Positions 1,428-57,458 of a stretch of DNA of 64,000 bases are shown piece after piece. How positions within the stretch are numbered: position 1 is the first letter of the stretch; every line of letters starts with the position of its first letter. The notes below the pieces were generated by a model. That model was not told where the DNA came from. It saw only the letters and a program-made list of their open reading frames with translations, and did no database searches. The stretch comes from a virus (Duplodnaviria; Caudoviricetes): positions 1,169 through 65,168 of the IMG/VR virus record IMGVR_UViG_3300028025_004186. One strand, given 5' to 3'. Both the position numbers and the translations under genes were made by a program.

Positions 1428-1430
1428 TAG

Positions 1431-1465
1431 TTGCAGTTAAATGGCAACCATGTTATACTTAAATA
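1431..1465 (+). promoter_or_regulatory. sigma70-type promoter followed by TAAATA late-promoter box
   Basis: TTGCAG-17nt-TATACT, then TAAATA. Confidence 0.55.
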
Positions 1466-1505
1466 CCAAAACAAATAGTGGTTCCAATACTCAACGGGAT
1501 ATAAC

Positions 1506-10900: not shown

Positions 10901-12865
10901 ACAGGCGGATATCACAGTGGTGCCAGCTCACAAACCAACAACTATCGTGTAGAAACAGACAGCAGTCTTAGCGATCCTGCCAATCCCGAAGACGGTGGCT
11001 TGGAGTTTATCAGTCCTCCACTGCCCTTGGATGAAATGTTGTCAGATCTAGACAAGGTAGTTAAATGGGCGCAGCGCAACGACTGTTACACCAACGATAC
11101 CACCGGCTTGCACATGAATGTCAGTGTTCCTGGCTTTGAACTCAGCAAACTTGACTATGTTAAGTTGGCTATATTCCTGGGCGATGAATATGTGTTGGAT
11201 CAGTTTGGTCGTGCTGGTAATACCTACTGCGCCAGTGCCATGGAAAACATTAGAAAGATTGCTCGAACCAATCCTGACAAAGTCAAAACTATGTTGCAAC
11301 AGATGCAGGGTAATCTCAGTGCCATGGCATCAAAGATTGTACACACCGGCACCACAAACAAATATACCAGTATCAACACCAAAGATGGTTACATTGAGTT
11401 TCGCAGTCCCGGCGGTGATTGGCTAGACGAATATGCCAACAACGAAGATAAAATCAACAATACCTTGCTGCGTTTTACAGTGGCATTGGACATTGCCATG
11501 AAGCCTGAGTTGTACAGACAAGAGTACATGAAGAAGTTGTACAAGACTCTGTCCCAGGGCGAGAGCGATGACACTATTCAATTCTTTGCACGTTATGCTG
11601 CTGGTGACTTGCCACAGTCAGCCCTGAAGAGTTTTGTCAAGCAAGCGCAAATACAGCGTAAAGCTAAAAAACTACTTCCTGGCGCAATCAAAGGGCAACA
11701 ATTAATTAGATGGCAGGCCACTTCAGGAGCAGCTACCGGTACTGTTGTGGCACGTACCGAAGAGGAAGCTAGAAAGAAAGCTGCTGTCAATATTGGTATT
11801 CCTTTCACTGATCGTGCCATAGACACCATGAACATACAGCCCTTGGATCTTTATACCGGACCTGTTAATCAATACAATATCATCAGAGACGATAGTGGGT
11901 TTGACCTTGGCGCTTTTGAAGGTATTGATGAACGCGATGCTATCACAAACTTCCGAGTGCAAAAACCACAGTGGAGCAACACTGATGTAACTGCTCGATT
12001 AGTAACATCAACTCCAACTCCTCCAGATTATCCAGCAGCGACGAGCAATACCCCAGGTTCGTGGACCATTATGAATCAATCAACTCGTAATATGTTACAA
12101 GGTGTTGGTGGCACATTCATTTATGCCTCTCGTGCTGCACGGGAGATAGCCCAAGATAACAATATTCGTCATGCAGAGATCCGTATCATAAACACCGACA
12201 ATGGTCAGGTCTTTGACATTGACGGAAATCCTGCTAGATACGGCACAGAATCAAATACTCGCGGTGGTGGATTTGCCCGAGCACCACACACCAGCATATA
12301 TCAAGTGGTTGATAATAGAGACGGGCAAATAATATTACGCGGCGCAACACGAACTTTTGCATACACGGTTGAAATGACCAACATATACATTGGTACTCCT
12401 AGATATAACCTTACCCCTGAAGATATTAGAATTGTTGATCTTAATACCAACACTGCCTATAAAATAGATGGTTCACCTGCTAATGCATCTGCACCAGCAG
12501 CACAAACAGAACAACTTTATAATGTTAGATGGACAGATGAAAATGGCGAGCACGACGTAAATCGTAGAGCCCCAAATGCCAATGCTGCCATGGAAGATGT
12601 TCGTAACAGTTTAGAAAGCGGTGGATTTAGAGTGGCCTCTATAGAAGCCAATCCCATAGGACAGACACAAGGTCAAGCACAAGGATCGGACAGTTTACCA
12701 TCAGGGCAGGCTCGTTGGTTGATACTGGATCGCAATGATCGTGAAGTTTATTCGTTTGTAGGTAGTACAGCACAACGTGACGCCAATGATATTGCCAGGA
12801 ACTGGCTAACTGCCAATGCTCAAGATGGACAAGGGCCTTTTACTGTGGTGCCGGTGTCAAGATGA
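7907..12865 (+). CDS. 1652-aa polyvalent protein: Pol-beta nucleotidyltransferase + HExxH metallopeptidase + HAD + amidoligase + C-terminal repeats
   Basis: GSNAAY..SDIDLH; AHELTHAQQ..E; FDIDDTL..YDDS; GMEFE..TDSSL..GLEFISP..TGLHMNVS..IEFRSPGG; repeated ~60-aa units at the end. Confidence 0.8.
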   Translation: MNIDELDNFNLDDAIRFHNQLNPGLWDQKEHLRPEVREALLRIADDFREFLGVQDLQVKDITISGSNAAYTYTPHSDIDLHLVVDIPELYDPVYRELFNAKKYEYNDRHNIRVRDADVELYVQPSDDTHHSQGIYSIKDNKWIQVPRRRKATVDDLAVRHKYEDLVARIDQAIKDSNNESAAALMKKIRNMRQTGLDQHGEFGAENLAFKMLRSQGYIKKLSDAVAAAKDRELSLKERKKPKKKKRYGYGGYWYPGFSWGDSSGSSEGGDGGGGGESVREDAGSTWDGVSPTTCMFTNEADSEDSRRDIIKKFAGLCAQHLKLKKIPRIILKKTPQWSEETGSFGQYQPDEHTLILSLPGRHILDVLRTMAHELTHAQQEERVGLPVGAGDTGSPWENEANARAGILMRHFAERHPEYFSNVSIAEASGYIPTRAQARDPRFSMALTADIQPGELGRQANKLGLQTDSQGRPALLMKSLARQLREYKETPRKKSLVIFDIDDTLLHTTAKIRVVSRGRVVRELTNQQFNHYKLQPDEEFDFGEFRNAEKFNRESEPIKPMVRKLKTILINSPDSDVIMLTARADFDDKELFLKTFRDLGIDMSRVHVHRAGNLPGDAIPAEKKAVWVRKYLNTDRYDHVRLYDDSVTNLTVFKDLRQEYPGVDFRAIYVGPEGTTKPIEEDEESYEIDDGNDPPGPESPPQFPSGTVKVDVSDVYDWYKLGQGISDIDDMNKKDFGQGPPSTVLAFGSEDLEHQYIKALKSLGLPVHDLDEPGEEDLDESAGVDLFEINMSPSNLRKMAAKTGAIAGMEFEMYVPGAAEADEDEYGSEPDYEMDESFPTGRGYQSEVIDFFRGGDNGSPRSTIQRALDVLSEDYWSWKDENFEEWLNDNDTLLDYYLREELPQEDDESDDQYTERLGSDDEEVRQAQDRAMDRVREEHQNEDQFEEFLQDADIRSMADFGSNYDVEWPYYNYPESRGGSIDIDDVASDFQSAIGRRVTTGGYHSGASSQTNNYRVETDSSLSDPANPEDGGLEFISPPLPLDEMLSDLDKVVKWAQRNDCYTNDTTGLHMNVSVPGFELSKLDYVKLAIFLGDEYVLDQFGRAGNTYCASAMENIRKIARTNPDKVKTMLQQMQGNLSAMASKIVHTGTTNKYTSINTKDGYIEFRSPGGDWLDEYANNEDKINNTLLRFTVALDIAMKPELYRQEYMKKLYKTLSQGESDDTIQFFARYAAGDLPQSALKSFVKQAQIQRKAKKLLPGAIKGQQLIRWQATSGAATGTVVARTEEEARKKAAVNIGIPFTDRAIDTMNIQPLDLYTGPVNQYNIIRDDSGFDLGAFEGIDERDAITNFRVQKPQWSNTDVTARLVTSTPTPPDYPAATSNTPGSWTIMNQSTRNMLQGVGGTFIYASRAAREIAQDNNIRHAEIRIINTDNGQVFDIDGNPARYGTESNTRGGGFARAPHTSIYQVVDNRDGQIILRGATRTFAYTVEMTNIYIGTPRYNLTPEDIRIVDLNTNTAYKIDGSPANASAPAAQTEQLYNVRWTDENGEHDVNRRAPNANAAMEDVRNSLESGGFRVASIEANPIGQTQGQAQGSDSLPSGQARWLILDRNDREVYSFVGSTAQRDANDIARNWLTANAQDGQGPFTVVPVSR

Positions 12866-13443
12866 GAGCTGCAGAATTCATCACCGAAGCCAATAGAAGT
12901 GGGCTACCAAGACTGTCAGTGCAGGATCAAATTCGTGCTGCTGTGAAAAAAGATGGTGGCCGTGCTGACGAATACTTTGTGAGATTTACCGGTGTTGACC
13001 GTGTAGGCTTCAGTGCTCGTCAAGTGTTTGGTCGTACTCCTGATGCCGACGATCCCAAGTTTGATCCTGATTATATTGGTGCCGGCAAAGGTCGTCCAGC
13101 ACTGTGGTTCTATCCTTTAAACACTTATCTCAAATCCCGCGATATTTTTGCCAGCGAACATCCTTACATATGGTTAGTGCGTATTCGTCCTGATGCTTGG
13201 TTACAACCTATTCGCAACAATACTCGAGGTATACAAGCAGCACCTCAAGGCAAGCATCGTGTGGGCATGATGCGGTTGACTGGCGGTTTTCCTGCTGCAA
13301 TTTTCTTTGAACCGGCATTTGATGTTGTGGGACGCTTTTACGACTATGCCAAAATGCATCAAAGACACGGTGAAGTGCAAGGCGCTCCCAAAACATCCAC
13401 CTCTAAAAATCTGTTAAATAAGTTCAAAGGATTGTTTAAATGA
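12862..13443 (+). CDS. putative internal head protein (CTS-like leader), possibly ART-like fold
   Basis: MRAAEFITE start; YFVRFT..LWFYPL; fold call is speculative. Confidence 0.55.
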   Translation: MRAAEFITEANRSGLPRLSVQDQIRAAVKKDGGRADEYFVRFTGVDRVGFSARQVFGRTPDADDPKFDPDYIGAGKGRPALWFYPLNTYLKSRDIFASEHPYIWLVRIRPDAWLQPIRNNTRGIQAAPQGKHRVGMMRLTGGFPAAIFFEPAFDVVGRFYDYAKMHQRHGEVQGAPKTSTSKNLLNKFKGLFK

Positions 13444-14060
13444 GAGCCGTTGAATTTATCGCTGAAATAGATCGTCGGGGGTTCCTAGGAGCCTTGGGTG
13501 CCGGTGCCATGGCTGCTGCTGGAGTTCCTGCACAAGCAAAATCCAAGAAGCCCGAGCCAATGGCCTTCTTGAGTTCAAACATGGATGCCGAAGAAATGCT
13601 GCACAAGACTGCGCTTCGTGCTGGCATTCGTGGCACAGAACTAGCACAGTTTCTAGCACAGTGTTATCATGAATCAGCAGGCTTTGGTCGTATGCATGAA
13701 TATGCCACGGGAAAAGAATACGAAGGACGTCAAGACTTAGGTAACATATACAAGGGCGACGGTGTTAGATACAAAGGGCGCGGCTTTATACAGATCACTG
13801 GCAGAGACAACTATCGTCGTGCTGGGCAGGCCTTGGGATTGCCACTAGAAGATAAGCCTGAGTTAGCCAGCAGACCCGACATTGCTGCAAAGATCGCTGT
13901 ATGGTACTGGGCAAATCGTGTCAGACCCAATGTTGCTAACTTCAATGACACTCGTGCTGTCACACAACGTATTAATCCCAAGTTACTTGGTTTGGCAGAC
14001 AGACACGAAAACTTTAAAGATTACAAGAATATGTTTATTGCCACAAGGACCGGAACGTGA
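13440..14060 (+). CDS. GH19 chitinase/lysozyme-like muramidase with CTS-like leader and Tat-like signal
   Basis: QFLAQCYHES, YEGRQDLGN, DG.RYKGRGFIQITGRDNY; MRAVEFIAE then DRRGFLG..AQA. Confidence 0.85.
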   Translation: MRAVEFIAEIDRRGFLGALGAGAMAAAGVPAQAKSKKPEPMAFLSSNMDAEEMLHKTALRAGIRGTELAQFLAQCYHESAGFGRMHEYATGKEYEGRQDLGNIYKGDGVRYKGRGFIQITGRDNYRRAGQALGLPLEDKPELASRPDIAAKIAVWYWANRVRPNVANFNDTRAVTQRINPKLLGLADRHENFKDYKNMFIATRTGT

Positions 14061-15352
14061 GAGCTCAAGACTTTATCACAGAAGCACCACGTGACGTATT
14101 CCACTTTGTGGGACAGAGTCATAACGTCCCACGTCCCACAGGTAGTTACTATAAATGGCGTGTGAGTCTCAGCAACGGACAATACTATCATGTCCGAGCT
14201 GGTGCCAATACTGACTTAGAAAAATTCAAGAAATACTTTCAACGTAAATGGGGCGCAGAAATGCCTGACGTTGAAGTTGTCAAGGCCGAACGTCTGGAAA
14301 GACTCAGTGAAGAAGATTCTCAAAAAGAATGTCCGCCAGCCACGCAAGATATCACCATCAATCTTGAGAATAGACAAAAAGCCATTGATGAGTACGGATA
14401 CGGTCCACTGAACCCAGACTTGCCCAATCGTAAGTTCTGGATGGCCAAAGTTGACGAGTGGAACCTGGACTCTGCAGAAGAAGCAAAACAAAGCCTGTGC
14501 GGTAACTGTGCAGCATTTGATCAACGTCAAGCAACCTTGGACTGTATTGCTCAAGGCATAGACAGTGACAATCCCGAAGACGCCGAAGGCGTTATTGACG
14601 CCGGCGAGTTAGGATATTGTAAATTTTTAAAATTTAAATGTGCCAGTCGTAGAACCTGCGATGCATGGGTAACAGGTGGTCCACTCACAGACCAACAAGA
14701 TGTAGATGAAATGGCCGGCACAATAAATGCTGGTATTAGTCAAGCATTGGCCAACAAAGGATACAAATATCTAGGCGGAGGAATTGACAAGCAAGCATAC
14801 CTAGAGCCAGGTACCGGACAGGTGTTGATCATATTTGGCTATCGCAAAGGCCAAAAAGATTTTAGCCCTGATCAACGTATGTTTATAAACTGGATAAACT
14901 ATTGCAATAAAAATAAAAATAATCCACACTTGCCTAGATTTTCAGGATTTGAAAGTTTCAAATTCCAAGGCAAAAACTATATTCAAGCAAGAATGGAACC
15001 ACTGCAAGAGTTACCTGATGAAATAGGATATCTAGTTGGACACGCTGATGAAGTTATAAAGAAACGCAAAACAGATTACAAAAAAGAACTTAAAACAATG
15101 TCACAGTATGCTATGCATACGTTTAATGACGAAGGCGGCGGTACATGGTATGAGTTAAAAGACACCGTAAAGCATTTGGGTGGTAAAAAAGCAGCAGTGA
15201 ATTTACTAAACACAGTGTATGATGTCAAACGTTTTGGACGTAAGCAAGGATACACAATTGATTTACACAAAGGAAATTACATGCGACGAGCCGACGGTAC
15301 CATCGTTGTAAATGATCCTTATGTGTTATGGCTAGGAGGGCTGCTAGATTGA
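14057..15352 (+). CDS. putative internal head polyprotein: Cys-rich domain + protein-kinase-like domain
   Basis: GTG start, MRAQDFITE; CGNC..C..C..C domain; after the QDVDE linker YLGGG, ARME.L, DLHKGNYM..VVNDP. Confidence 0.7.
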   Translation: MRAQDFITEAPRDVFHFVGQSHNVPRPTGSYYKWRVSLSNGQYYHVRAGANTDLEKFKKYFQRKWGAEMPDVEVVKAERLERLSEEDSQKECPPATQDITINLENRQKAIDEYGYGPLNPDLPNRKFWMAKVDEWNLDSAEEAKQSLCGNCAAFDQRQATLDCIAQGIDSDNPEDAEGVIDAGELGYCKFLKFKCASRRTCDAWVTGGPLTDQQDVDEMAGTINAGISQALANKGYKYLGGGIDKQAYLEPGTGQVLIIFGYRKGQKDFSPDQRMFINWINYCNKNKNNPHLPRFSGFESFKFQGKNYIQARMEPLQELPDEIGYLVGHADEVIKKRKTDYKKELKTMSQYAMHTFNDEGGGTWYELKDTVKHLGGKKAAVNLLNTVYDVKRFGRKQGYTIDLHKGNYMRRADGTIVVNDPYVLWLGGLLD

Positions 15353-16242
15353 GAGCCACTGAATTCATAGCAGAAGGTGCCACTGATATATTGTATCATT
15401 ATACTGGCATCAATTCGGCTCTTAAAATACTCACCAATGGCGAATTTGAGTTGAGCAGTGTCACAGGCAATCCGTCTGAAGAACAATATGCTCCCCCAGG
15501 TTATCCTTACTTTTTATCTACCACTCGCAGTCGTGTGGGCGATTATCATAGATGGGTTGGCAGCAGTGCTGTGATGTTTGTGTTGGATGGACAATGGCTG
15601 CAGCAGCGTTATCCAGTCAAGCCGGTTGATTATTGGAATCGTTCTTGGTTACACAGTGGTGGCAGCAGAAGCAGAGAAAGCGAAGACCGAGTGTTCAGTC
15701 GTGATCCCACTATTGCCACTGGCGGTGTCAAGATGATTCATGTTCTACTGAAAGAACAGCACGAAAATAGATCTCCAGAAGTTAGAAAATTATTGATACT
15801 GGCCAAACGATTGGACATACCTGCTTATTTGTACGACGACGAGCAGGCCTGGAGATTACAAGACACACGCAAAGCCATCACTGTGGGGCAAGCTGCCTCA
15901 CTGTTAAAAGGACAGGATCCTTCACCAAGAAGTTATGGAAGAAAATATCTATCAAAATGGCTGGAGTTGATACACAAGAAAGCCAGTGATGAGTTAAGCA
16001 AAGAAGCCAATCGCATGGCGTATAATATGAAATACTATTCGCTTGATGGATTGTACAATCTGGACATTGATATGAGCAACGCCAGAAAACCCGGCTCCAG
16101 TGATCATGACCAAGCTGTTAAGATTATCAGTTATATGCGAGCCAACAGAATCACAACATTGCAGCAACTACTGAATCATCTCCGAGACAAGTGGACAGCA
16201 ATTGGCGAAAAAGAGCAAGCAGCGAAAAAGGCACAGCAATGA
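15349..16242 (+). CDS. putative internal head protein, ADP-ribosyltransferase-like (start moved to TTG 15349)
   Basis: (M)RATEFIAE leader overlapping the upstream TGA; LYHYT..FLSTTRS..ESEDR order matches the ART H/R-S-E scaffold. Confidence 0.55.
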   Translation: MRATEFIAEGATDILYHYTGINSALKILTNGEFELSSVTGNPSEEQYAPPGYPYFLSTTRSRVGDYHRWVGSSAVMFVLDGQWLQQRYPVKPVDYWNRSWLHSGGSRSRESEDRVFSRDPTIATGGVKMIHVLLKEQHENRSPEVRKLLILAKRLDIPAYLYDDEQAWRLQDTRKAITVGQAASLLKGQDPSPRSYGRKYLSKWLELIHKKASDELSKEANRMAYNMKYYSLDGLYNLDIDMSNARKPGSSDHDQAVKIISYMRANRITTLQQLLNHLRDKWTAIGEKEQAAKKAQQ

Positions 16243-17546
16243 GAGCCCAAGAATTTATTGTAGAAGCGTTTGATCAACCTTACGCGACAGATTTAGAAAA
16301 ATCCGAACATGATGATTATGACTCATTGGTGCAATTGCCAGATGGTTCCCACTTGAGCATTATGTTTAATCACCAAGGCGATGACGAATATCAAGTTGAA
16401 TTTTGGCGAGGGCCTAGTCAGGAAGTAACCGGCGAAGGTGATGCACAAAGAATATTTGCTACAGTTCTGAGTACTATACAAAAGTTTATTAAAGAACATA
16501 ACCCGTGGCGGTTGACATTCTCAGCAACCAAAGACGTTGAGCCCGGGCAGAACAGTGAAAGCAGAGCCAAATTATATAATAGATTAGTTGATCGCTATGC
16601 TGCTGCTTGGGGGTATGATGCCCTTATTAATGATCTTGGTGACCAAGTTGAATACGAGTTGACTAGATTAAAGCCGGGTGTGACGGAAGACGCAATGCGA
16701 GGTGTGATCTATATTAAACCCAATTTAGAAAATGAATGGCCTGAAGCAAATCGTTATCCAGAATTTCATAAGTTAGGCAAGGATCAGTGGATTAAAATTG
16801 CTCGGCAAGGTAGTATGGCCAAGTGGTCAAGTTTAAAAGATGTTGGCAATTTTGATAGTGATTTATCTAATTTAGAACCAGGAAAAAGAAAAAGAGCGGC
16901 GGTACAGGTAAATCGTGGCAAAGTTGAACTACCTATCGTGGGTCGTTGGCCTAACGGTGAGTTGGATCTAATTGCTGGCAACACTCGTACTGCTACACTA
17001 TTAGATCAAGGACATGATCCTAAAGTTTGGGTTGTAGATGTTCCTGATGTTGATATCAAAGAAAACTTTGCTGATGGCAAGACGCCAGTCCAACCAGTGA
17101 TTGCTGCCATACAAAAAGTCATGCCCATAGCACAAGAAATATGGTTCCATGGCAGTCGTGCTACAGGTCGGCATCGTAGAAATAGCGACACTGACATCTT
17201 GGTGGTTGTGCCTGATGACCTCGTGGGAGATCAGTATCTTGGTGTGGTAAGAATATTACAAAACCTTTCTGCACATTTTGACAATTATGACATACAACCA
17301 ACTAAGGCAGGAACCAATATACATCAAATTGCACAAGAAGAAGGTAAATTACTGTGGTCAACAACAAATGAAAACTTTGCCGATGGCAAGGTCAAGGGCA
17401 AAAGTCGTCCGGGTCGTGTAAAACGTTCAGGTGCAAGTTGTGCAGGATCGGTAAGTAGTTTAAGAGCCAAGGCCAAACGCAGTGGAGGCGAACGTGGCAA
17501 GATGTATCACTGGTGTGCTAACATGAAGTCAGGAAAGAAAAAATGA
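16239..17546 (+). CDS. putative internal head polyprotein: unknown domain + ParB/Srx-like + minimal nucleotidyltransferase + basic Cys microdomain (start moved to 16239)
   Basis: MRAQEFIVE; LPIV..LIAGNTR; FHGSRATG..SDTDILV; ENFADGK occurs twice. Confidence 0.7.
   Translation: MRAQEFIVEAFDQPYATDLEKSEHDDYDSLVQLPDGSHLSIMFNHQGDDEYQVEFWRGPSQEVTGEGDAQRIFATVLSTIQKFIKEHNPWRLTFSATKDVEPGQNSESRAKLYNRLVDRYAAAWGYDALINDLGDQVEYELTRLKPGVTEDAMRGVIYIKPNLENEWPEANRYPEFHKLGKDQWIKIARQGSMAKWSSLKDVGNFDSDLSNLEPGKRKRAAVQVNRGKVELPIVGRWPNGELDLIAGNTRTATLLDQGHDPKVWVVDVPDVDIKENFADGKTPVQPVIAAIQKVMPIAQEIWFHGSRATGRHRRNSDTDILVVVPDDLVGDQYLGVVRILQNLSAHFDNYDIQPTKAGTNIHQIAQEEGKLLWSTTNENFADGKVKGKSRPGRVKRSGASCAGSVSSLRAKAKRSGGERGKMYHWCANMKSGKKK
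17061..17390 (+). repeat. 21-nt direct repeat (17061-17081 and 17370-17390) flanking a nucleotidyltransferase module
   Basis: GAAAACTTTGCTGATGGCAAG vs GAAAACTTTGCCGATGGCAAG (20/21 identical). Confidence 0.9.
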
Positions 17547-17968
17547 GAATACGCGATATAGTTGAAGCAGCTGACTTGGATCTTGATGCCATGAAAACCA
17601 ACATAGCTGCTGGCACCGATGCAGTTGATACCACTAACCCAGTCAAGTCCCTTCCTGGGTCGTCTAAGTCCACAGCAAGTCTTGGCATGACCCCGGCACA
17701 GTCAGCAGTTATTTCTGCCAGCGATGTAGACAAGGCCATAAATCTTGGTAAATCAGTGCAGTCTAATTTAGAGAAACAAATTGCCGACACCACAACACAA
17801 TTAAAAGTTGCGCAAACAATGCCAGCAGGTGCCACAGTCAAAGGCATGTCTGGGCCAGTGGGAGGTCCTGCTACCAATTGGGTTGGCAAGACTGCGCAAG
17901 GTGCCCCCGCAGGTGGAGGCATAGTAAAGAAACCACCAACAACCAGTCAGAAATTTCCTTTAAAATGA
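17543..17968 (+). CDS. putative internal head protein, low complexity
   Basis: MRIRDIVE leader; ATGA coupling. Confidence 0.6.
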   Translation: MRIRDIVEAADLDLDAMKTNIAAGTDAVDTTNPVKSLPGSSKSTASLGMTPAQSAVISASDVDKAINLGKSVQSNLEKQIADTTTQLKVAQTMPAGATVKGMSGPVGGPATNWVGKTAQGAPAGGGIVKKPPTTSQKFPLK

Positions 17969-18354
17969 GAGCCACTGAATTCATCGTTGAAACCCCGGTA
18001 CGTGACTTGACTAGAGCACTGCGAGCCAACTCAAATCACGACTACAATACCATTGACGGTGAAATGACTGCCATCTCTCTACACTACGACATCACTCCCA
18101 AGCAGTTACATGATCGCTTTGTCAAACGCTATGGCAAGACTCCCGACGAATGGATCAAATCACAAAGTGTTGATGAAGCCGGCACAGGATTGTTCTGGAG
18201 AACCTATCCCTGTACCAAAGATTGTTCAGGTCATCAAGCCGGTGATCAATGGGCACAGATTCGCGGAATAAAAAATCCTGCACAATGCCCCTTGGGCAAG
18301 TCCAACAGTTGGTGGGAAGGCTGCAAAAGCGAAGCCGAAGGTCGCCCTTATTAA
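17965..18354 (+). CDS. putative internal head protein with C-terminal Cys module (start moved to 17965)
   Basis: MRATEFIVE; QSVDE linker; CTKDCSGHQAG..C..EGC. Confidence 0.65.
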   Translation: MRATEFIVETPVRDLTRALRANSNHDYNTIDGEMTAISLHYDITPKQLHDRFVKRYGKTPDEWIKSQSVDEAGTGLFWRTYPCTKDCSGHQAGDQWAQIRGIKNPAQCPLGKSNSWWEGCKSEAEGRPY

Positions 18355-18387
18355 TTGTCTGCTACCTTGGGTAGCGTAAATATCCCC

Positions 18388-20232
18388 ATGCAGCGTAACG
18401 TCTATCTCTATGCCCCTAACTTCGTCTCAGGTCTTGGTTCTGTGACCACAGTGTGGTTGCCTTACACAGTGGGATGCCTGTGGAGTTATGCAGTGACCAA
18501 TCCCACAGTGGCCAGTAACTATCGCCTGGCAGGCCTGGGTGTGTTGCGTGATCCCATTGAGCAAGTTGTTGGCAGTCTTGACAATCCTGCAGTGTGTGGA
18601 TTCAGTACCTATGTCTGGAACGAACAGTACAATCTTCAATTGGCACAGGCCATCAAACAACGTTGGCCTGACTGTGTAATTGTGTTTGGCGGACCCAACG
18701 TGCCCAATCAAGAACAAGACTATCGTGACTGGCGAGCTGCTGCACCTTGGATTGATGTCACCATACGCTACGAAGGTGAGCAGGCATTTCAACAGATGTT
18801 GCTGGACAACCTGTCAGGTGATCTCAAGAAAGATTATGTGGCCACTAGACTTGAAGAGTTGGATATCCCCAGCCCCTATCTCACCGGTGTGTTTGACAGC
18901 ATTGTACAGGATCAGAGTCATCAATATGCCATGACATTTGAAACAAATCGTGGTTGTCCGTTTGCCTGTACGTTCTGTGACTGGGGGAGCCTGACTTACA
19001 GTAAAATTAAAAAGTTTTCCCTGGAGCGTGTGTTTGCAGAAATTGACTGGGCCGGAAAGAATCAAATTGAGTTTGTTATCATAGCCGATGCCAACTTCGG
19101 AGTGTTTCCAGATCGCGATCAAGCCATTGTTGATCATCTCATTGCCACCAAACAACAGTGGGGATACCCACAACAGTTAAACACCAATTGGTATAAAAAT
19201 TCCAATCAGGTAGTGTTAGACATCGCTGAAAAACTCACCCAGCATGGATTAAATCGTGGACTCACACTCAGTGTGCAGAGCATGAACGATGCCACACTCA
19301 CAGCAATCAAACGCAAGAACATGCGTATCAATGATCTCAGTACACTGTTCCGTGACTGCAATCGCCGACAAATACCTTTCTATACTGAACTAATCCTGGG
19401 CTTGCCCTTGGAAACTCTAGACTCCTGGCAGCAAGGACATTATCAACTGTTGGAGATGGGACAACATGGATGCGTGTTTGTATTTCCTGTGGAGTTATTG
19501 CGCAACAGTGAGCTAGGCATCAATCATCAACAGTATCAAATACAGAGTGCAACCATTGATGACTACTGGCGTTGTGAGGTCACAGGTATCAATGAGAAGC
19601 AGCACATTGTAATGAGTCACAGCACCATGACTGCCAAAGATCATGTCGCTGCCACAATGTTCAGTTGGATGATTGTGACTTTTCATCATCACGGATGGAC
19701 AGAAATCTATGCTAGATTTTTACACAGTCAGGGCTGGAGTTATCAACAGATATACTCAAGTCTGGAGCAATGGCTGCGCAACGACGAATTCTTTCTAGCT
19801 CAAATCAACACTATCCAACAGGGCGTTGAAGCATTTTATCTACATCAGCAAAGCACAGATTATTATGGAATTTGGGACACAGTTCGGGCATTGTTTGCTG
19901 ATCGTGACCAAAGTTGCCAACGCCTGACTCAGTGGTTCCTCTCTGTGTACACCGGAGAGTTGGCCTGGCAGGTAATTGAATTGCAACAAGCGTTTATCAC
20001 AGACCCCAATTTTAGGAGCAAACTTGTGCTGACACAGCCCAATAATTTATTGAGCGTGATACTGGAGTTTGATGCAGAATTACACAACAGCGAGCACAGT
20101 TATGAATTTTGCCCCACGTCTCAATGGCAGGATACCGAGGAATTCATGGCCTATGTTGTGCTGAGAAGAAAAGAAGGCTTTGGTAAAAATCGTATTGTAG
20201 CACTGGGGCAGCAGTTAGAAAAACTATGCTAA
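18388..20232 (+). CDS. B12-binding-domain radical SAM enzyme (start moved to 18388)
   Basis: FSTYVWN, VFGGP, ETNRGCPFACTFC (CxxxCxxC), DANFG, ILGLP. Confidence 0.85.
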   Translation: MQRNVYLYAPNFVSGLGSVTTVWLPYTVGCLWSYAVTNPTVASNYRLAGLGVLRDPIEQVVGSLDNPAVCGFSTYVWNEQYNLQLAQAIKQRWPDCVIVFGGPNVPNQEQDYRDWRAAAPWIDVTIRYEGEQAFQQMLLDNLSGDLKKDYVATRLEELDIPSPYLTGVFDSIVQDQSHQYAMTFETNRGCPFACTFCDWGSLTYSKIKKFSLERVFAEIDWAGKNQIEFVIIADANFGVFPDRDQAIVDHLIATKQQWGYPQQLNTNWYKNSNQVVLDIAEKLTQHGLNRGLTLSVQSMNDATLTAIKRKNMRINDLSTLFRDCNRRQIPFYTELILGLPLETLDSWQQGHYQLLEMGQHGCVFVFPVELLRNSELGINHQQYQIQSATIDDYWRCEVTGINEKQHIVMSHSTMTAKDHVAATMFSWMIVTFHHHGWTEIYARFLHSQGWSYQQIYSSLEQWLRNDEFFLAQINTIQQGVEAFYLHQQSTDYYGIWDTVRALFADRDQSCQRLTQWFLSVYTGELAWQVIELQQAFITDPNFRSKLVLTQPNNLLSVILEFDAELHNSEHSYEFCPTSQWQDTEEFMAYVVLRRKEGFGKNRIVALGQQLEKLC

Positions 20233-20239
20233 ATATGAT

Positions 20240-20545
20240 ATGCGCTGCGAATTTGTTCAAGTTGTGTGTGATGTGGACTGTAAATGGGAAGGGTTATCCC
20301 CAGCCTACAGGGCCTATATCAACGATGAATTATTTGCCGAGCGTACTTGGATATGGACAGAACATTACCTAGAAGAAATGTTTCAAATTTCAGCACTGCC
20401 GGGCAAGTATCATATCAGATTTGAACTAGTACAGCCTTGTTTGGCTGAATTAACAGTGACAAATATGCGTGTGGTACAAGGGCCAGGGCGCATGAAAAGC
20501 GGTGGATTATTGAAGATTGGAAGCACAGAACATGAGAGCCAGTGA
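20240..20545 (+). CDS. hypothetical protein
   Basis: ORF directly after a TAAATA box. Confidence 0.6.
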   Translation: MRCEFVQVVCDVDCKWEGLSPAYRAYINDELFAERTWIWTEHYLEEMFQISALPGKYHIRFELVQPCLAELTVTNMRVVQGPGRMKSGGLLKIGSTEHESQ

Positions 20546-20723
20546 ATTTATCAATGAAAATGTCAGCGTAGGGGCAACAGGCGCAGGATCAATTGCCTCA
20601 ACCATGGGCGGACTTAGTCACATGCCTGCTGTGAGCCGCTTAGGTGGAAACTTACTAACTGGTAAATATACAAACGTGGCTACGCCAAATACACCAAAGA
20701 AGAGGAAAAATCGTGCTAAGTGA
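20532..20723 (+). CDS. small putative internal head protein (start moved to 20532)
   Basis: MRASEFINE leader, Gly/Ser/Thr-rich body, basic tail. Confidence 0.65.
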   Translation: MRASEFINENVSVGATGAGSIASTMGGLSHMPAVSRLGGNLLTGKYTNVATPNTPKKRKNRAK

Positions 20724-21156
20724 TGCTTTGAAAACTTTACTCGCTACTGAGTATGCTTTTGCGACCAAGTCGCAGTACTTTCACTGGAATGTGGAAGGCC
20801 CGGACTTTGCACAATTGCATGAGTTCTTTGGTGAGCTGTATGAAGAAGTCAACGGCAATGCCATTGATCGCTGTGCTGAATTTATTCGTACCTTAGATGA
20901 ATACGCTCCAGGTAGTTTTGAGAGATTTGCCGAACTCAGTGTTATTCAAGGACAGACCAAAGTACCCCGTGCTCGGTTAATGCTTGAAGAATTACTCAGC
21001 AACAACACCCAAGTTATTGACTTATTGAATCAATGTTTTTCCGAAGCCGAACAAGAAAATCAGCAGGGCATTGCAAACTTCATTGCTGAACGTTTGGACG
21101 CACACGGCAAACACGGATGGATGTTGCGTAGCTTCTTGAAAGACAACCGCGCATGA
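20713..21156 (+). CDS. dps: Dps/ferritin-like protein
   Basis: HWNVEGPDFAQLHEFF, IDRCAE, HGKHGWML. Confidence 0.9.
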   Translation: MLSDALKTLLATEYAFATKSQYFHWNVEGPDFAQLHEFFGELYEEVNGNAIDRCAEFIRTLDEYAPGSFERFAELSVIQGQTKVPRARLMLEELLSNNTQVIDLLNQCFSEAEQENQQGIANFIAERLDAHGKHGWMLRSFLKDNRA

Positions 21157-21734
21157 GCAACATCCGTGACATCATTGACCGTTTGAATTTAATTGAAGGC
21201 AGTGCAACCTCTGCGGCATTGCCTAAGTCTGGACTCAATGCTCAACAAAAGTCAGTGCCTGAATTGCCGGCATTGTTCAAGCCCAAGAACATCAGCCCAG
21301 TGTTGGGCAGCAAGAAAGATCCTAAGCACCCCACAGCAGGATACTTTGTGGGTGGTGAAAGCCAGGACATGAGTCATCCACAAAACGAAGATCTATTGAG
21401 CAAAGTTAAAAAAGGTCTCAACGACTATCTCAAGAGTGTGGAAGATCAATTGGTAGGCCAGGATCGCCAGCTCATCAACAAAGCCAAGGCCAACATACAA
21501 AAAGATCCCTTGGAAAAATTATTACCAGTCAAAACAATTCGCACCGACGATGGCAATGAAATTAAAATTCATGGCAACGAAGATGATGGGTTCCGCATCA
21601 CAGTCAAAGGCAAGCCACTTAAATCAAAGTTTGATTCATTGGATGAAGCTGCCATGGCCTGTGAAATGTATCTAGCACGCCGCAGTGCAATGGCACCAGC
21701 AATGCCGGATCAAGATTACATAGAAGAACGATAG
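21153..21734 (+). CDS. putative internal head protein
   Basis: MSNIRDIIDRLNLIE leader variant; Glu-ending linkers. Confidence 0.55.
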   Translation: MSNIRDIIDRLNLIEGSATSAALPKSGLNAQQKSVPELPALFKPKNISPVLGSKKDPKHPTAGYFVGGESQDMSHPQNEDLLSKVKKGLNDYLKSVEDQLVGQDRQLINKAKANIQKDPLEKLLPVKTIRTDDGNEIKIHGNEDDGFRITVKGKPLKSKFDSLDEAAMACEMYLARRSAMAPAMPDQDYIEER

Positions 21735-21743: not shown

Positions 21744-24560
21744 ATGAATTTCCGACAACTGTTTGAAAATAAAACACCAGTCACAGACTATGGCACCTGG
21801 CGTGACGAGATTAATGCTCAGGGCGGTGAGATACATCCTCAGCAGGATAGAAATCGTTTGGTGGCACAACGCTGGGACGGTGACGTCATTGGTGAATTTA
21901 ATCTTAGAACCAATCAAGGTTATATTAACAGACAGCAAGGTGTGGCAGAAGGCAAAGGTGATTTTGCACAAGCCATTGAAAATCTACACGGTTGGCATGA
22001 AGTAGAATCAAACAATCCTGACATAAGAATTTGGGAGTTTGATGATCGTGAAGGCGGTCACTACGCTCAAGGAACAGTGTATTACATTGAGAAAACTGGT
22101 CGCATACAAATAGAGTTTGAAGACCGAGATGGTTATCACGGCGGTGATGTAACTGATGCTTTCAATTCCATTGGTGGTGCCATGAATGTGTTGAAGAATA
22201 TCACAGTACAGGTTAGACCAAACACCGGCAAAGCACGAGATTTTGATAAACTTGGTGGAAGAACTGTTGCAGGTCCAGATGATCTATATAAAACTGATCG
22301 TGCAGGCCGGAAAGGTACCTTGAATAAGAGTCGCATGGATACTATGAAAGCATCTAGTCCATATCGTAAGACAGGCCCCGAAGGCCAATTACCCGAGTCT
22401 GGCGTAGAAGAAGCCACAGGTGATCCAAAGTTTGACAAGATGCTTAAAGGTATTACAGGTAAAAGACAAGTAGCCAAACAACAAAAAACAGATACTAAGC
22501 AACAGGCACGTGATGCTTTTGGTGGTATGTTTGGTGGTGGCAATCCTGCTGATAAACTCAGCATCAGAAACAAAGGTGTGGCGGAAGGCTCAGATGATGG
22601 CTACGGTTATAAGTCATTGTCAACCGAACAAATCATGAAGTTGATCAAATCAGGCAACTGGGAGGCCGTGCAAGACGTTGTACCGGGCAAGCACATTCAA
22701 TTACGAAACAACAGAAATGGAAAGAGCACCACCATCCATGTCAAGCAAGATGTAGATGAAGGCCTAAAAAGTAAAATAGCAGGTGCAGCTCTTGCTGCTG
22801 CCAATCTCTTAGGAAGTCCTGCTCAGGCAGCGGAAGAACCAGTTAAGCCTATAACAATTGCCTATGTACAAATTGACGGTGAAGTCAGGAAATACAATCT
22901 AGGAGATAAATTTTCTAGTGCCAAAGAAGCCGAACAATTTATTTCTGGTGTCTTAGACAAGCAAGGTATATCAGGATATACCTTAGATATTAAACACGGA
23001 TATCCCAAACAGAAGCAAAGTGTAGATGAAAATCTACGTGATTGGTTCAAAGAAAAGTGGGTGAGATTTGGCCCTGATGGCAAGATTCGCGGCGACTGTG
23101 CCAGAGGCAGTGAATCCGAAGGCAAGCCTAAATGCTTACCACAGGCCAAAGCACATGCACTGGGCAAAAAAGGTCGTGCATCAGCTGCAGCCCGCAAGCG
23201 CAAAGAAGATCCCAACGCCAATCGCACAGGTGCTGCAATAAATGTTGCAACCAAAAAGAAAACCAACGAAGTGCAACTTGACGAAAAATGCTGGGATACA
23301 CACAAACAAGTAGGGATGAAGAAAAAAAGCGGTCGCATGGTCCCCAACTGTGTGCCAAGAGAAAGTGTAGAACAATCAGAAATGTGCCCTGAGTGCGGCG
23401 GCGCAATGTATTCTGAAGCTATGATCAATGAAAAGAAAGATGCCTGTTATTACAAAGTCAAAGCATCAGCCAAGGTATGGCCCAGTGCTTATGCATCAGG
23501 CCGCTTGGTACAGTGTCGCAAACGCGGTTCCGCCAACTATGGCAAAAAATCAGAAAGTAAAATACCCGAAGATGCCAATATGTCACAGGCCGCTGTGAGA
23601 AAATTACAGAACATGCTCAACACTAAAGGTGCAAATTTAGATGTTGACGGCGTAATGGGACCGTTGACTACAAAGTCGGTAGAAAAATATCTGCCAGCAG
23701 TGGCCAAACGGTTGGCGCCAGATCCAAGTCGTACCACCGGAGTACAAGGACAAAAGCCCAAGCACAAAGACATGGCCGAAGGCTTGCCACCAATGGGTTT
23801 TGTTAGGTCTGAGATAAAACGCGATCCTTTGAAAAATCCAACAAGAACTTATATAGAAATATCAAAAATGTTAGGTATTACACCTAGACAATTGCAAGGT
23901 TTTACTTTACGCAATGCAGGGTTTCCGTCTCCTATTAAAGGGATAGGAAGACAAGCAGGGCGTGGCACTAATAATTATTATGAATTAAACCAAGTAAAGC
24001 AATGGATTAAAGATAATAATATTAAAGATCAAATTGCAGCACTGGTTAGTAAAAATGTTGCAAAAGATCAAGGCGTAGACGAAGGCGAATACAAAGACAC
24101 AGTTGACAAGAGCAAGATTCCGGCAGTGCAACGCAAAGCCCAAGGTGGTGATTGGAAAGTGTCCACCCGAGATCTTGAGCACGAACGCAGCAAGAGCCCC
24201 ACTGGCGCAGCTGGGCTGGCCAAAGCCAAAGAACGTTTAGGCATGAATGAAAATCAACAGTTGCCACCCGAAGTCATTGAACTGCTTAAAAAGGTAGCGC
24301 AGAGCGATGCTGCTCCTGAACATAAAAAGGCCATCATCAACTCTATCATGGCCAAGTACCAGCCCGTCAAGGATATTGCTGAAACACCAACACGAACCGC
24401 ACGTGAAAAGTTCAACCAGGGCCTGAAACGTGCAGGCTTTGATCCTGATGCAGCAGCCAAAAGACTTACTGATTTGATTGCCAAGCAAAAAGCCGAGCGT
24501 GAACAATTTGAAAAAGAGAATCCCGCAGTGTATGGTGATACTTCCAAGGCACCCAAATGA
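21744..24560 (+). CDS. 938-aa modular putative internal head polyprotein (many short modules including PG-binding and HTH domains)
   Basis: MNFRQLFE; linkers GVAEG x2, GVEEA, DVDEG, SVDEN, DMAEG, GVDEG; VRKLQNMLN..DVDGVMGPLT (PG-binding-1); EISKMLGITPRQL..FPSP..VKQWI (AlpA/Xis-like). Confidence 0.75.
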   Translation: MNFRQLFENKTPVTDYGTWRDEINAQGGEIHPQQDRNRLVAQRWDGDVIGEFNLRTNQGYINRQQGVAEGKGDFAQAIENLHGWHEVESNNPDIRIWEFDDREGGHYAQGTVYYIEKTGRIQIEFEDRDGYHGGDVTDAFNSIGGAMNVLKNITVQVRPNTGKARDFDKLGGRTVAGPDDLYKTDRAGRKGTLNKSRMDTMKASSPYRKTGPEGQLPESGVEEATGDPKFDKMLKGITGKRQVAKQQKTDTKQQARDAFGGMFGGGNPADKLSIRNKGVAEGSDDGYGYKSLSTEQIMKLIKSGNWEAVQDVVPGKHIQLRNNRNGKSTTIHVKQDVDEGLKSKIAGAALAAANLLGSPAQAAEEPVKPITIAYVQIDGEVRKYNLGDKFSSAKEAEQFISGVLDKQGISGYTLDIKHGYPKQKQSVDENLRDWFKEKWVRFGPDGKIRGDCARGSESEGKPKCLPQAKAHALGKKGRASAAARKRKEDPNANRTGAAINVATKKKTNEVQLDEKCWDTHKQVGMKKKSGRMVPNCVPRESVEQSEMCPECGGAMYSEAMINEKKDACYYKVKASAKVWPSAYASGRLVQCRKRGSANYGKKSESKIPEDANMSQAAVRKLQNMLNTKGANLDVDGVMGPLTTKSVEKYLPAVAKRLAPDPSRTTGVQGQKPKHKDMAEGLPPMGFVRSEIKRDPLKNPTRTYIEISKMLGITPRQLQGFTLRNAGFPSPIKGIGRQAGRGTNNYYELNQVKQWIKDNNIKDQIAALVSKNVAKDQGVDEGEYKDTVDKSKIPAVQRKAQGGDWKVSTRDLEHERSKSPTGAAGLAKAKERLGMNENQQLPPEVIELLKKVAQSDAAPEHKKAIINSIMAKYQPVKDIAETPTRTAREKFNQGLKRAGFDPDAAAKRLTDLIAKQKAEREQFEKENPAVYGDTSKAPK
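21936..24086 (+). repeat. dispersed ~18-nt linker repeats at module junctions
   Basis: CAAGGTGTGGCAGAAGGC 21936, AAAGGTGTGGCGGAAGGC 22572, CAAGATGTAGATGAAGGC 22746, CAAAGTGTAGATGAAAAT 23016, AAAGACATGGCCGAAGGC 23766, CAAGGCGTAGACGAAGGC 24069; related copies at 14696, 16674, 18163. Confidence 0.75.
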
Positions 24561-25831: not shown

Positions 25832-26860
25832 ATGAAATCCGAGACACTTGTTTACTACAAATACAAACCTACAGTAAAACCAAATCTTGCAGGTAAATTC
25901 TGCGCAATACCATTTTCAATGATTGAAATTGATGAAGATGGAGATGTGATGTTATGTGGGTGTCAGTACCATATGCCCTACGTGATTGGCAATATATATC
26001 ACGATTCTATCAGTGACATATGGCAAAACCCATCAGCAAAAACAGTGCGTGATAGTGTGGTTGCAGGAGAGTTTACTTACTGCAATTGGACTTGTCCAAA
26101 TCTTCAAAATGCCCCGCAGCGACCGGACGTAATCCCAGATCCAGGAGTATTTCCAGTTTGGGTTAAAATTGATCTTGATCGTAGCTGTAATTTACGATGT
26201 CCATCATGTCGTGAAACTGTAATTCAAGAAAAAGACAATGCACGTATTGCCAAACAACAAGAAATTTTTTCTGAAATCGTCACTCGAGCGGCCGGTGACC
26301 CTGATGTCAGCTACACTGTATTCCCAATCGGCAGCGGTGAAGTATTTGCTAGTCGAAGCGGATTGCATTTTTTAAAATCTTTGACCAATTATCCACACAA
26401 TAATATACAACTGGCAATATGTACCAATGGTACATTGTTATGGCACCACCGCGAACTAGTTGATCAACTTCAACATCACATGTCATTTACTGTCAGTATT
26501 GATGCTGCCACAGCTGAAACCTATGCTCTAGTACGCGGAGGTAACTGGGAAGAATTACAATTGGGCATAGACAGGTATCAAAAAAACATTCAGCACTTTA
26601 CTTTTGTAGTACAGGAAAAAAATTGGCATGAGATTGAGTTGATTGCTGAATACGCCGATCAACTGGGCAAACGAGTTGATTATCAAAAGTTTTTAGATTG
26701 GGGGCATTGGACCAATGACTGGTGGCACGAAAATAATCCCTTGGATCGACATAAAGCTCACTATCAAACTGTGCTTGGCGCATTGAATCAGGTGCGGCAA
26801 CGCTATCCAAAATGTACGTTTTCTACTGAGATAATAAATTTAATGAACAAGGTCAAATAG
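25832..26860 (+). CDS. radical SAM protein with N-terminal SPASM/twitch-like domain
   Basis: C..PF..IEIDEDGDVMLC..IGN; CNLRCPSC; TNGT. Confidence 0.85.
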   Translation: MKSETLVYYKYKPTVKPNLAGKFCAIPFSMIEIDEDGDVMLCGCQYHMPYVIGNIYHDSISDIWQNPSAKTVRDSVVAGEFTYCNWTCPNLQNAPQRPDVIPDPGVFPVWVKIDLDRSCNLRCPSCRETVIQEKDNARIAKQQEIFSEIVTRAAGDPDVSYTVFPIGSGEVFASRSGLHFLKSLTNYPHNNIQLAICTNGTLLWHHRELVDQLQHHMSFTVSIDAATAETYALVRGGNWEELQLGIDRYQKNIQHFTFVVQEKNWHEIELIAEYADQLGKRVDYQKFLDWGHWTNDWWHENNPLDRHKAHYQTVLGALNQVRQRYPKCTFSTEIINLMNKVK

Positions 26861-26911: not shown

Positions 26912-27172
26912 ATGAACGATCGTATTTTTACATCAGAACAAAAAGCCAAGCTCACGCAGCTCATCAACGAAGGCATGCAGGTTATGCACGAAGTTGAAAC
27001 ACTCAACGGTGGACTTGCCGACACAGTCAAAGCCATTGCCGAAGAGTTGGAGATCAAACCAGCTGTGTTAAAGAAAGCAATTAAAATTGCACACAAAGCT
27101 GAGTTTGGTAAGGCACAACAAGACCATGAACTATTAGAAACTATTCTTACAACGGTTGGTAAAACACTTTGA
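26912..27172 (+). CDS. T4 DsbA-like dsDNA-binding protein (start moved to 26912)
   Basis: AAGGAGG RBS; helical pattern VKAIAEELEIKPAVLKKAIKIAHK; lies before the polymerase. Confidence 0.6.
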   Translation: MNDRIFTSEQKAKLTQLINEGMQVMHEVETLNGGLADTVKAIAEELEIKPAVLKKAIKIAHKAEFGKAQQDHELLETILTTVGKTL

Positions 27173-34249: not shown

Positions 34250-34418
34250 TATAGAAGAACTCAGCATTGAAGAACTTGAACGAGAACATCACAGATTGGA
34301 AAAACAACTAGGCAAATTGGAAAAACATCCCATTGCCGATCATGATCGAATACGCGATATCAAAAAACTCAAACTACAACTCAAAGATCACATCGAAGAA
34401 CTAAAACGTCAGCCATGA
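34212..34418 (+). CDS. DUF465/YdcH-like small coiled-coil protein
   Basis: EHHRLEKQL..IKKLKLQLKDHI. Confidence 0.6.
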   Translation: MNQDLTNLNNSINIEELSIEELEREHHRLEKQLGKLEKHPIADHDRIRDIKKLKLQLKDHIEELKRQP

Positions 34419-56547: not shown

Positions 56548-56625
56548 GCATCAGTACCAAAGTGGTTTAATGGCTCCGCCTGCAAAGCGGTTGATTCGTA
56601 GGTTCAAATCCTACCTGATGCTCCA
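56548..56625 (+). tRNA. tRNA-Cys(GCA)
   Basis: GCATCAG/CTGATGC acceptor, U73, CCA, anticodon loop CT-GCA-AA. Confidence 0.9.
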
Positions 56626-56631
56626 GATTAA

Positions 56632-56795: not shown

Positions 56796-56800
56796 TTTAT

Positions 56801-56990: not shown

Positions 56991-57000
56991 AAAGAACGTT

Positions 57001-57196: not shown

Positions 57197-57218
57197 TTTT
57201 ACTTTTAAAGGAAATATC

Positions 57219-57446: not shown

Positions 57447-57458
57447 GAATAGATGTAT

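Follow-up and report, generated by a model that had tools for sequence, protein, structure and literature searches.

Phage T4 fills its head with internal proteins (IPI, IPII, IPIII and Alt) that begin with a short N-terminal tag. This capsid-targeting sequence of 10-19 residues brings a native or a fused foreign protein into the prohead core and is removed by the prohead protease gp21 (PMC9026906, PMC10229621, PMC5694885), which cuts C-terminal to Glu in the motif L/I-X-E (PMC9026906). Asp instead of this Glu blocks processing in T4 (PMC9026906). We describe a viral gene that may extend this arrangement to a polyprotein. It is a 938-amino-acid (aa) open reading frame (ORF) on a 64,000-nucleotide stretch of DNA (the window), which comprises positions 1169-65168 of the 65,168-bp IMG/VR virus record IMGVR_UViG_3300028025_004186 (CheckV completeness 19%). 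Its product consists of an N-terminal tag and 12 modules, separated by 11 spacers of the form hydrophobic-x-Glu. We consider it somewhat probable that this protein is targeted to the capsid and cut by the prohead protease into small internal proteins. The 103-kDa chain as a whole would be carried into the prohead core by its short T4-type tag. There, a gp21-type prohead protease, cutting after Glu in hydrophobic-x-Glu, would cleave off the tag and sever the chain at its 11 exposed spacers. The head would then hold about a dozen unrelated proteins of 5-17 kDa, to be ejected with the DNA. We infer packaging, cleavage, the identity of the protease and ejection from the comparisons presented below.

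The likeness to the T4 internal proteins lies in the short tag ending in hydrophobic-x-Glu (MKTYQEFIAE in T4, MRAxEFIxE in the window), in a variable set of genes for small, often basic proteins, and in a protease of the gp21 family, which is here found in relatives. The T4 internal proteins of about 8, 10 and 20 kDa (PMC9026906) compare with predicted products of 5-17 kDa. In T4, however, each internal protein has its own gene, one tag and one N-terminal cut, with an additional C-terminal cut in Alt, whereas here a single tag is followed by about 12 unrelated modules, each with its own site, and some modules begin with export signals.

A second related system is that of the polyvalent proteins (PMC5512222), which likewise combine many unrelated domains per chain, extreme mosaicism, predicted delivery with the DNA and a proposed processing. 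They are defined by hallmark enzymatic domains, with embedded zincin-like or C-terminal assemblin-like peptidases, and Iyer et al. (2017) proposed that these peptidases release the domains (PMC5512222). With 12 modules and about 12 confident folded units in an AlphaFold model, the 938-aa protein shares their multi-domain character (2-15 distinct domains per chain). In contrast, no hallmark effector or peptidase domain scored above the curated Pfam cut-offs in the whole protein or in ten pieces of it; its modules are mostly small and of unknown fold, and cutting is predicted to occur in trans at a recurrent spacer. A first-pass annotation of the window, made from the sequence alone, had presented processing as an addition to the polyvalent concept. 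This was overstated, as domain release by peptidases had already been proposed, and what appears to be new is the predicted trans cutting at a recurrent spacer between every module. The term 'capsid targeting' does not occur in the text of the polyvalent-protein paper (PMC5512222).

Cutting at several sites per protein has been described in phiKZ-like phages, where a gp21-related protease cuts many internal head proteins after Glu (substrates of phiKZ gp175 and SPN3US gp245; PMC10052503, PMC9026906). The SPN3US motif is A-X-E, and all identified cuts except the protease's own yield N-terminal propeptides (PMC10052503). While the multiple cuts in phiKZ-like phages remove long N-terminal propeptides, the pieces of the 938-aa protein each look like a separate cargo module, and its family has L, V, I or M rather than a small residue at P3 (counting the Glu as P1). 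The polyproteins made by RNA viruses of eukaryotes, an analogy that Iyer et al. draw for polyvalent proteins (PMC5512222), are likewise single products that a viral protease divides, at a short site that recurs, into functionally unrelated proteins. They share no homology with the protein described here, for which the predicted compartment is the prohead and the predicted products are not replication proteins but cargo destined for the next cell.

The capsid-targeting sequence, the specificity of gp21, variable tagged internal proteins in T-even phages, multi-site propeptide cutting in phiKZ-like phages and polyvalent proteins with a proposed release are already published. Our search of the accessible text of literature outside subscription journals returned no polyprotein in which a prohead-protease-type site precedes each of a series of unrelated cargo modules, no interchange of tag and spacer, no export signals unmasked by predicted cuts, and no report of the spread of such a design over thousands of metagenomic proteins and cyanophage virion proteins.

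Spacers between unrelated modules

The first-pass annotation had described the 938-aa protein as a chain of unrelated modules bounded by Glu-ending linkers, and this description held. The ORF is real, and an identical copy of the protein is encoded on a 122.5-kb contig. Its 12 modules range from 4.9 to 17.1 kDa, have an isoelectric point (pI) above 9 in seven cases and are mutually unrelated (best non-self BLASTP E = 0.14 over all 12). All nine quoted spacers are present: QGVAEG (residues 65-70), SGVEEA (219-224), KGVAEG (277-282), QDVDEG (335-340), QSVDEN (425-430), QLDEK (511-515), DMAEG (676-680), QGVDEG (776-781) and DIAET (877-881). Three sites had been missed, namely LFE-8 at the end of the tag, IPE-609 and MNE-836, with homologue contexts (defined below) of 9/17, 12/18 and 10/14, respectively. 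The features are listed in Table 1.

Spacer codons vary synonymously (GGT/GGC, GTG/GTA, GCA/GCG/GCC and GAT/GAC), so what recurs is a signal in the peptide rather than in the DNA, and a DNA-level repeat is ruled out as the explanation of the spacers. The Glu codon is GAA at all 12 sites (tag end and 11 spacers), which is uninformative because the gene uses GAA 49 times and GAG 12 times.

We next looked at how the spacers relate to module boundaries in homologues. Searches yielded 1,230 near-length proteins at E <= 0.001 among 8,000 candidates scored and 2,620 shorter proteins, again at E <= 0.001 and among 8,000 scored. In most homologues, the match covers just 9-30% of the query (60-95% identity). 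The best 120 near-length proteins (the query and 119 listed homologues; 106,180 aa) contain the strict spacer [GDS]V[ADE]E 372 times, and homology breakpoints cluster on spacers (278 BLASTP high-scoring segment pairs, HSPs). We then compared the residues immediately upstream of each module, wherever that module recurs, with the pattern [VLIMF]-x-E. The pattern directly preceded the module start in 240 of the 272 distinct contexts of the near-length set. Inclusion of the shorter proteins brought the figures to 392 of 441 distinct contexts and 184 of 203 clusters of differing upstream neighbours, compared to a background of 2.4% (2,789 of 116,697 positions). A guessed boundary at residues 547/548 failed this comparison (3/91 contexts) and serves as a negative control. 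Among the 272 contexts, P3 was L (107), V (94), I (31) or M (11), together 243; P1 was Glu in 247, P2 was variable, and P1' was N, G, K or A. This logo agrees with the published gp21 motif (PMC9026906), in line with the statement in the first-pass annotation that T4-type prohead proteases cut after hydrophobic-x-Glu.

These comparisons support the view that the spacers behave as a conserved hydrophobic-x-Glu peptide signal. Module and upstream spacer jointly behave like a cassette able to sit behind a tag or behind any other module, which would explain the extreme mosaicism of the family. The motif has only 3-4 residues and the gene has 61 Glu codons, and a lysine- and glutamate-rich protein might show a short acidic motif repeatedly by chance. 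This is highly improbable given the counts. A loose pattern, [GDSA][VMIL]xE, occurs nine times in the protein where 2.93 are expected, and none of 300 composition-preserving shuffles reached nine. In 81 window ORFs (20,286 aa), the strict pattern was counted nine times, with six of these in the 4.6% of residues that make up the 938-aa protein and three in the other ~19,350 residues. When preceded by Q or K, five of seven window occurrences are in this protein. The retention of the motif at module starts across homologues, far above its background, further argues against chance.

To place the spacers relative to predicted folds, we modelled the protein with AlphaFold2. A run without alignment gave a mean predicted local distance difference test score (pLDDT) of 44.6 and was replaced by one with a 58-row alignment (58 of 133 rows first aligned), in which about a dozen units are confident (mean pLDDT 63.1). 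Of the 11 internal spacer Glu residues, nine (69, 223, 281, 339, 429, 609, 679, 780 and 880) fall in segments with pLDDT<50 (binomial p = 0.0044, with 361 of 938 residues below 50), and Glu 514 borders such a segment. The model supports a position of the spacers between predicted folded domains and not within them. Coincidence of the linkers with AlphaFold domain boundaries, an idea raised in the first-pass annotation, was thus seen at nine of 11 sites, and the linkers did not appear buried in folded domains.

Alternatively, the spacers may be conserved flexible junctions that travel with each module, or favoured recombination joints, in an uncut virion or early protein that acts as one chain, like the N4 virion RNA polymerase and many polyvalent proteins. 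We consider this unlikely. A pure linker need not keep a hydrophobic P3 and a Glu at P1 in 392 of 441 contexts while P4, P2 and P1' vary, and the synonymous codon variation leaves no DNA-level joint. On the other hand, the mosaicism shows frequent recombination at or near spacers, polyvalent proteins can be transferred or packaged unprocessed (PMC5512222), and cleavage is something that we only infer.

Table 1. Features of the multi-module gene and of its upstream region. Positions refer to the window; contexts are those in which hydrophobic-x-Glu directly precedes the following module.
Feature	Position	Strand	Contexts	Remarks
Multi-module ORF	21744..24560	+		ATG start, 938 aa, 103.5 kDa, pI 9.5; N-terminal tag, 12 modules, 11 hydrophobic-x-Glu spacers
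N-terminal tag MNFRQLFE, residues 1-8	21744..21767	+		Ends L-F-E; class MN[FLI]xx[LIMF][FLIY]E
Spacer GVAE, residues 66-69	21939..21950	+	18/18	pLDDT<50 segment 65-72
Spacer GVEE, residues 220-223	22401..22412	+	22/22	Low pLDDT (AlphaFold)
Spacer GVAE, residues 278-281	22575..22586	+	5/7	Low pLDDT (AlphaFold)
Spacer DVDE, residues 336-339	22749..22760	+	10/13	Low pLDDT (AlphaFold)
Signal-peptide-like start of module 6, residues 340-362	22761..22829	+		GLKSK, A/L-rich stretch, AQA; directly after spacer Glu; helix 342-351, low confidence
Spacer SVDE, residues 426-429	23019..23030	+	87/91	Before NLRDWFKEKW module; 189/193 in pattern search; low pLDDT (AlphaFold)
Spacer QLDE, residues 511-514	23274..23285	+	48/52	Before KCWDTH module; borders low-confidence segment 500-513
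Spacer KIPE, residues 606-609	23559..23570	+	12/18	Before weak peptidoglycan-binding-like module; low pLDDT (AlphaFold)
Spacer DMAE, residues 676-679	23769..23780	+	1/1	34 HSP ends at 671-680; low pLDDT (AlphaFold)
Spacer GVDE, residues 777-780	24072..24083	+	7/7	Low pLDDT (AlphaFold)
Candidate spacer GMNE, residues 833-836	24240..24251	+	10/14	Weakest of all; outside low-confidence segments
Spacer DIAE, residues 877-880	24372..24383	+	11/12	Low pLDDT (AlphaFold)
Upstream neighbour	21153..21734	+		Starts MSNIRDIIDRLNLIE; resembles tag class MS[SN]I..G[LI]..E (31/233 homologues), compared by eye only
Run of eight genes with MRAxEFIxE-type tags	12862..20723	+		Starts 12862, 13440, 14057, 15349, 16239, 17543, 17965, 20532
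Polyvalent-type protein, 1652 aa	7907..12865	+		Nucleotidyltransferase, HELTH zincin-like motif, HAD/PNK-like region, Amidoligase_2; breakpoints at several hydrophobic-x-Glu sites

N-terminal tags and the prohead protease of relatives

The multi-module gene follows a run of eight genes whose products begin with MRAAEFITE, MRAVEFIAE, (V)RAQDFITE, (L)RATEFIAE, MRAQEFIVE, MRIRDIVE, MRATEFIVE and MRASEFINE. Several of these tags appear only once the start codon is shifted to an internal one. Untagged genes are interspersed in the run, for example a radical SAM ORF (18355-20232), and several of the tagged genes have one or two internal spacers. In T4, IPIII and IPII begin MKTYQEFIAE and IPI begins MKTFKEFTS (translated from NC_000866). 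This similarity supports the presence of a T4-type capsid-targeting tag on the gene cluster. A T4-type N-terminal propeptide ending in L/I-X-E would be represented by MRAxEFIxE in the eight neighbours and, with L-F-E at residues 6-8, by a second tag class in the 938-aa protein. Of the 233 homologues that start with M, 31 have this second class and 60 the T4-like class.

The second class also begins a small ORF between the portal and protease genes of two related records, G001 and G002 (MNLFEFF and MKLFEMFE). This small ORF has the position of T4 gene 67 (311267-311485 in G001; L103, reverse strand 3236-3469, in G002). The N-termini of T4 gp67 and gp68 show no resemblance to the tags.

A direct comparison of tags and spacers is possible at module 7. 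Its start, xL[RHK]xWF..KW, was found 193 times in 240 proteins and was preceded by hydrophobic-x-Glu in 189 instances, 151 of them internal and 38 directly after an N-terminal tag. With a slash after the Glu, a homologue reads MRAEEFINE/NLHKWFKEKW where the 938-aa protein reads KQSVDE/NLRDWFKEKW. These matches show that the Glu ending a spacer takes the same position as the one ending a T4-type tag, and that the two elements are interchangeable. Cutting of the tag in the T4 manner would give the stand-alone and internal forms a common mature N-terminus, which is the strongest sequence-only argument for spacer cutting. An uncut chain would leave this equivalence with a cleavable tag unexplained.

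The DNA polymerase of the window (27169-29835) is of the T4 gp43 type (phrog_262), with best matches to Sinorhizobium phage Phosso (49.8%), Agrobacterium phage Atu_ph07 (45.1%) and the 121Q group (~43%). As these are jumbo myoviruses, the window is a fragment of a T4-superfamily jumbo phage, grouped by its polymerase with Phosso, Atu_ph07 and 121Q-type jumbo phages and not with phiKZ. G001, a 315,778-bp record that is 91% complete, encodes a DNA polymerase 80.3% identical to that of the window and is syntenic over the whole locus, including the ClpA-like gene, a 1,699-aa protein, the run of MRAxEFIxE genes, the Dps-like gene, the multi-module gene and the DNA polymerase. Its tagged multi-module gene starts MNLFNLIEN and has the spacers GVAEG, GVAEA and QLDEK. 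The head module of G001 has a T4-like order (portal, small ORF, acidic ORF, protease, scaffold and major capsid protein). Peptidase_S77 was detected in G001 (E 4.8e-28; gene at 312482-313105) and in G002 (E 7.8e-29), and the capsid proteins of both retain L-[KS]-E just ahead of the conserved mature region. Sequence similarity and gene order support the conclusion that syntenic relatives encode a gp21-type prohead protease.

In the tagged cluster of the window, ORF 20713-21156 matches the DNA-binding protein family phrog_3636 (E 8.5e-28) and has a counterpart at the same place in G001 with 60.5% identity. The Dps/ferritin label for this ORF is our own reading, as PHROGs gives just 'DNA-binding protein'.

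Export signals, cyanophage homologues and rival accounts

Some modules begin with what look like signals of the general secretory (Sec) or twin-arginine (Tat) pathway. Of 41 distinct hydrophobic segments lying internally in homologues, 24 start <=8 aa after hydrophobic-x-Glu, compared to a background of 19% (p = 3e-8). Twin-arginine signals under a stringent definition were seen twice, at residue 421 of 694 and residue 889 of 1112, in each case two residues past a Glu, and one of these two homologues (P0027) has a precomputed TAT_signal Pfam match. Sec and Tat signal peptides function only at an N-terminus, so their placement after spacers argues for cutting; in an uncut chain, they would have no role.

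A tag followed by a signal is also found in ORF 13440-14060, where MRAVEFIAE precedes a twin-arginine-type signal (RRGFL, a hydrophobic stretch and AQA) and a glycoside hydrolase family 19 (GH19) domain. The latter is lysozyme/chitinase-like (Glyco_hydro_19, E 1.7e-11), and the TAT_signal match (E 0.0096) is below the cut-off. The same tag-plus-Tat layout is seen at position 162570 of G001.

Signal peptides behind tags and spacers, including that of the GH19 lysozyme-like ORF, could also mean that the spacers are cut outside the capsid, in the cytoplasm of the producing cell, by a host enzyme or another protease such as a zincin-like one (for example the HELTH region of ORF 7907). Signal-bearing modules would then be exported, for instance in lysis or envelope remodelling, which would suit the weak peptidoglycan-binding module of the 938-aa protein. 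Zincin-like peptidases have been proposed by Iyer et al. as processing enzymes of polyvalent proteins (PMC5512222). Even so, this account is quite unlikely. The spacer motif fits the gp21 consensus and the tags fit the T4 capsid-targeting sequence, while the 938-aa protein has a tag class that also occurs in G001 and G002, on the small ORF of their portal-protease head module. To our knowledge, no zincin has a specificity for hydrophobic-x-Glu. Furthermore, the only cultured carriers of the modules that were found are cyanophage or 'Marine virus' records, of which the two that we examined are T4-like.

These cultured carriers were found in a protein search, in which residues ~408-629 of the 938-aa protein matched genes in 366 cultured-phage records, with no match for the rest of the protein. 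A DNA search of the ORF against cultured phages gave no match. All 366 records are named Synechococcus, Prochlorococcus, Cyanophage or Marine virus, and the two examined, S-SCSM1 and P-SSM2, belong to the Kyanoviridae. In S-SCSM1, the homologue of modules 7-8 (gp029) carries the annotation 'virion protein', and 45 proteins of the S-SCSM1 virion have been found by mass spectrometry (PMC9602691). The module junctions of this homologue are GVSE/G, MTE/G, FNE/D and VSE/G, and those of the P-SSM2 homologue (PSSM2_123) are FKE/K, VEE/G and VNE/G.

Several observations weigh against capsid targeting and cutting of the 938-aa protein by a prohead protease. The S-SCSM1 and P-SSM2 homologues lack such a tag at the N-terminus, even though one of them carries a virion-protein annotation; untagged homologues also fit an uncut chain. 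The tag MNFRQLFE is less T4-like than those of the neighbouring genes, and the start of module 9-69, directly behind it, keeps hydrophobic-x-Glu in only 9 of 21 contexts and one of eight upstream-neighbour clusters. The candidate site MNE-836 lies in a moderately confident region of the model. Hydrophobic-x-Glu is a short motif, contexts taken from homologous proteins are not independent, and strict GV[AD]E is rare in G001 overall (8 in 102,103 aa). Peptidase_S77 had no match in the 65-kb record that contains the window (19% complete) and was found in only two of five related records, the three without it being 33-61% complete. Lastly, signal peptides are unexpected on proteins ejected into the cytoplasm, and export from the producing cell fits them equally well.

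The first-pass annotation had further pictured the pieces as effectors small enough for passage through the tail channel. Such a size requirement found no support, since T4 Alt and the virion RNA polymerase of N4 are delivered whole. Alt is listed with 40 copies per mature head and is ejected (PMC9026906), and phage N4 packages its virion RNA polymerase unprocessed (PMC5512222). Cutting by a prohead protease does not need the argument from small size.

Tentatively, the same rule may apply more widely, such that any small module behind hydrophobic-x-Glu, be it at the end of a targeting tag or of a preceding module, becomes injected cargo in a large uncultivated jumbo clade and in T4-like cyanophages, with a Sec/Tat subset, unmasked by the in-capsid cut, being re-exported to the periplasm of the next host. 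We regard this extension as possible but doubtful. Re-export of some injected proteins to the periplasm is a testable idea and, if true, would constitute a hitherto undescribed injected-then-secreted route for phage effectors, with one gene delivering a dozen separate proteins. If the spacers are cut, they would provide a general and simple rule for loading T4-superfamily capsids with diverse cargo, and several thousand mosaic 'hypothetical proteins' would become readable as sets of discrete injected proteins whose N-termini can be predicted. The spacers would also supply a defined motif for predicting prohead protease specificity in uncultured phages and extend the T4 targeting-sequence packaging tool to multi-cargo constructs.

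Module contents and other genes of the window

Few hints to the function of the modules were found. The best Pfam match of the 938-aa protein was PG_binding_3 (E 2.8e-4; 21.4 bits, below the cut-off of 24.6), and further sub-threshold matches were to HicA_toxin (E 0.042), DUF5872 (E 0.018) and a helix-turn-helix. PHROGs matches were restricted to families without known function. A PDB fold search with the AlphaFold model returned no matches at E <= 0.001, a BFVD fold search returned only uncharacterised viral proteins, and an ESM Atlas search with module 70-223 returned no named family. The T4 late-promoter consensus TATAAATA had no matches within the window, where genes lie on the + strand almost throughout.

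According to the first-pass annotation, the same linkers separate domains in other ORFs of the window. By count, they are not enriched: the loose pattern occurs eight times in ORF 7907 (7.03 expected), twice in ORF 14057 (1.25 expected) and twice in ORF 16191 (1.75 expected). Homology breakpoints, however, do coincide with the named sites. In ORF 14057, 25 HSPs start at residue 86, after the previously missed LSE-85, and 28 end at residues 211-219, around VDE-218. ORF 16239 has ends at 150-156 (VTE-150) and starts at 273 (IKE-275), and 23 HSPs end at residues 67-74 of ORF 17965 (VDE-71). Homology breaks in ORF 7907 lie near Glu 237, 426, 485, 680 and 771-787. ORF 7907 has a classical polyvalent architecture and fits that type more closely than the 938-aa protein does; its 1,699-aa counterpart in G001 is at the equivalent place. 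In ORF 16239-17546, NFADGK follows Glu twice (DIKE/NFADGK and TNE/NFADGK), flanking a Polbeta-type nucleotidyltransferase domain.

Elsewhere, the window contains a chaperone/protease set at 648-3770 and 58980-60908, consisting of a DnaJ-like ORF, a ClpA-like ATPase (phrog_4871, E 8e-238) and an Hsp70/DnaK-like ORF, whose label comes from its N-terminus read by eye and not from a family search. Six tRNA genes (Cys, Glu, Ser, Trp, Arg and Gly) and a permuted transfer-messenger RNA gene with the tag peptide ANAANDEVFALAA are located at 56548-62515. Besides the one within the tagged run, radical SAM-type ORFs are found at 25832-26860 and 34415-35659. A weak match to B12-binding (E 5.4e-5; 23.5 bits, short of the cut-off of 32.1) was also present in one of the three. 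All three are near glycosyltransferase-like and sugar-nucleotide-type genes, with which they may form a modification pathway.

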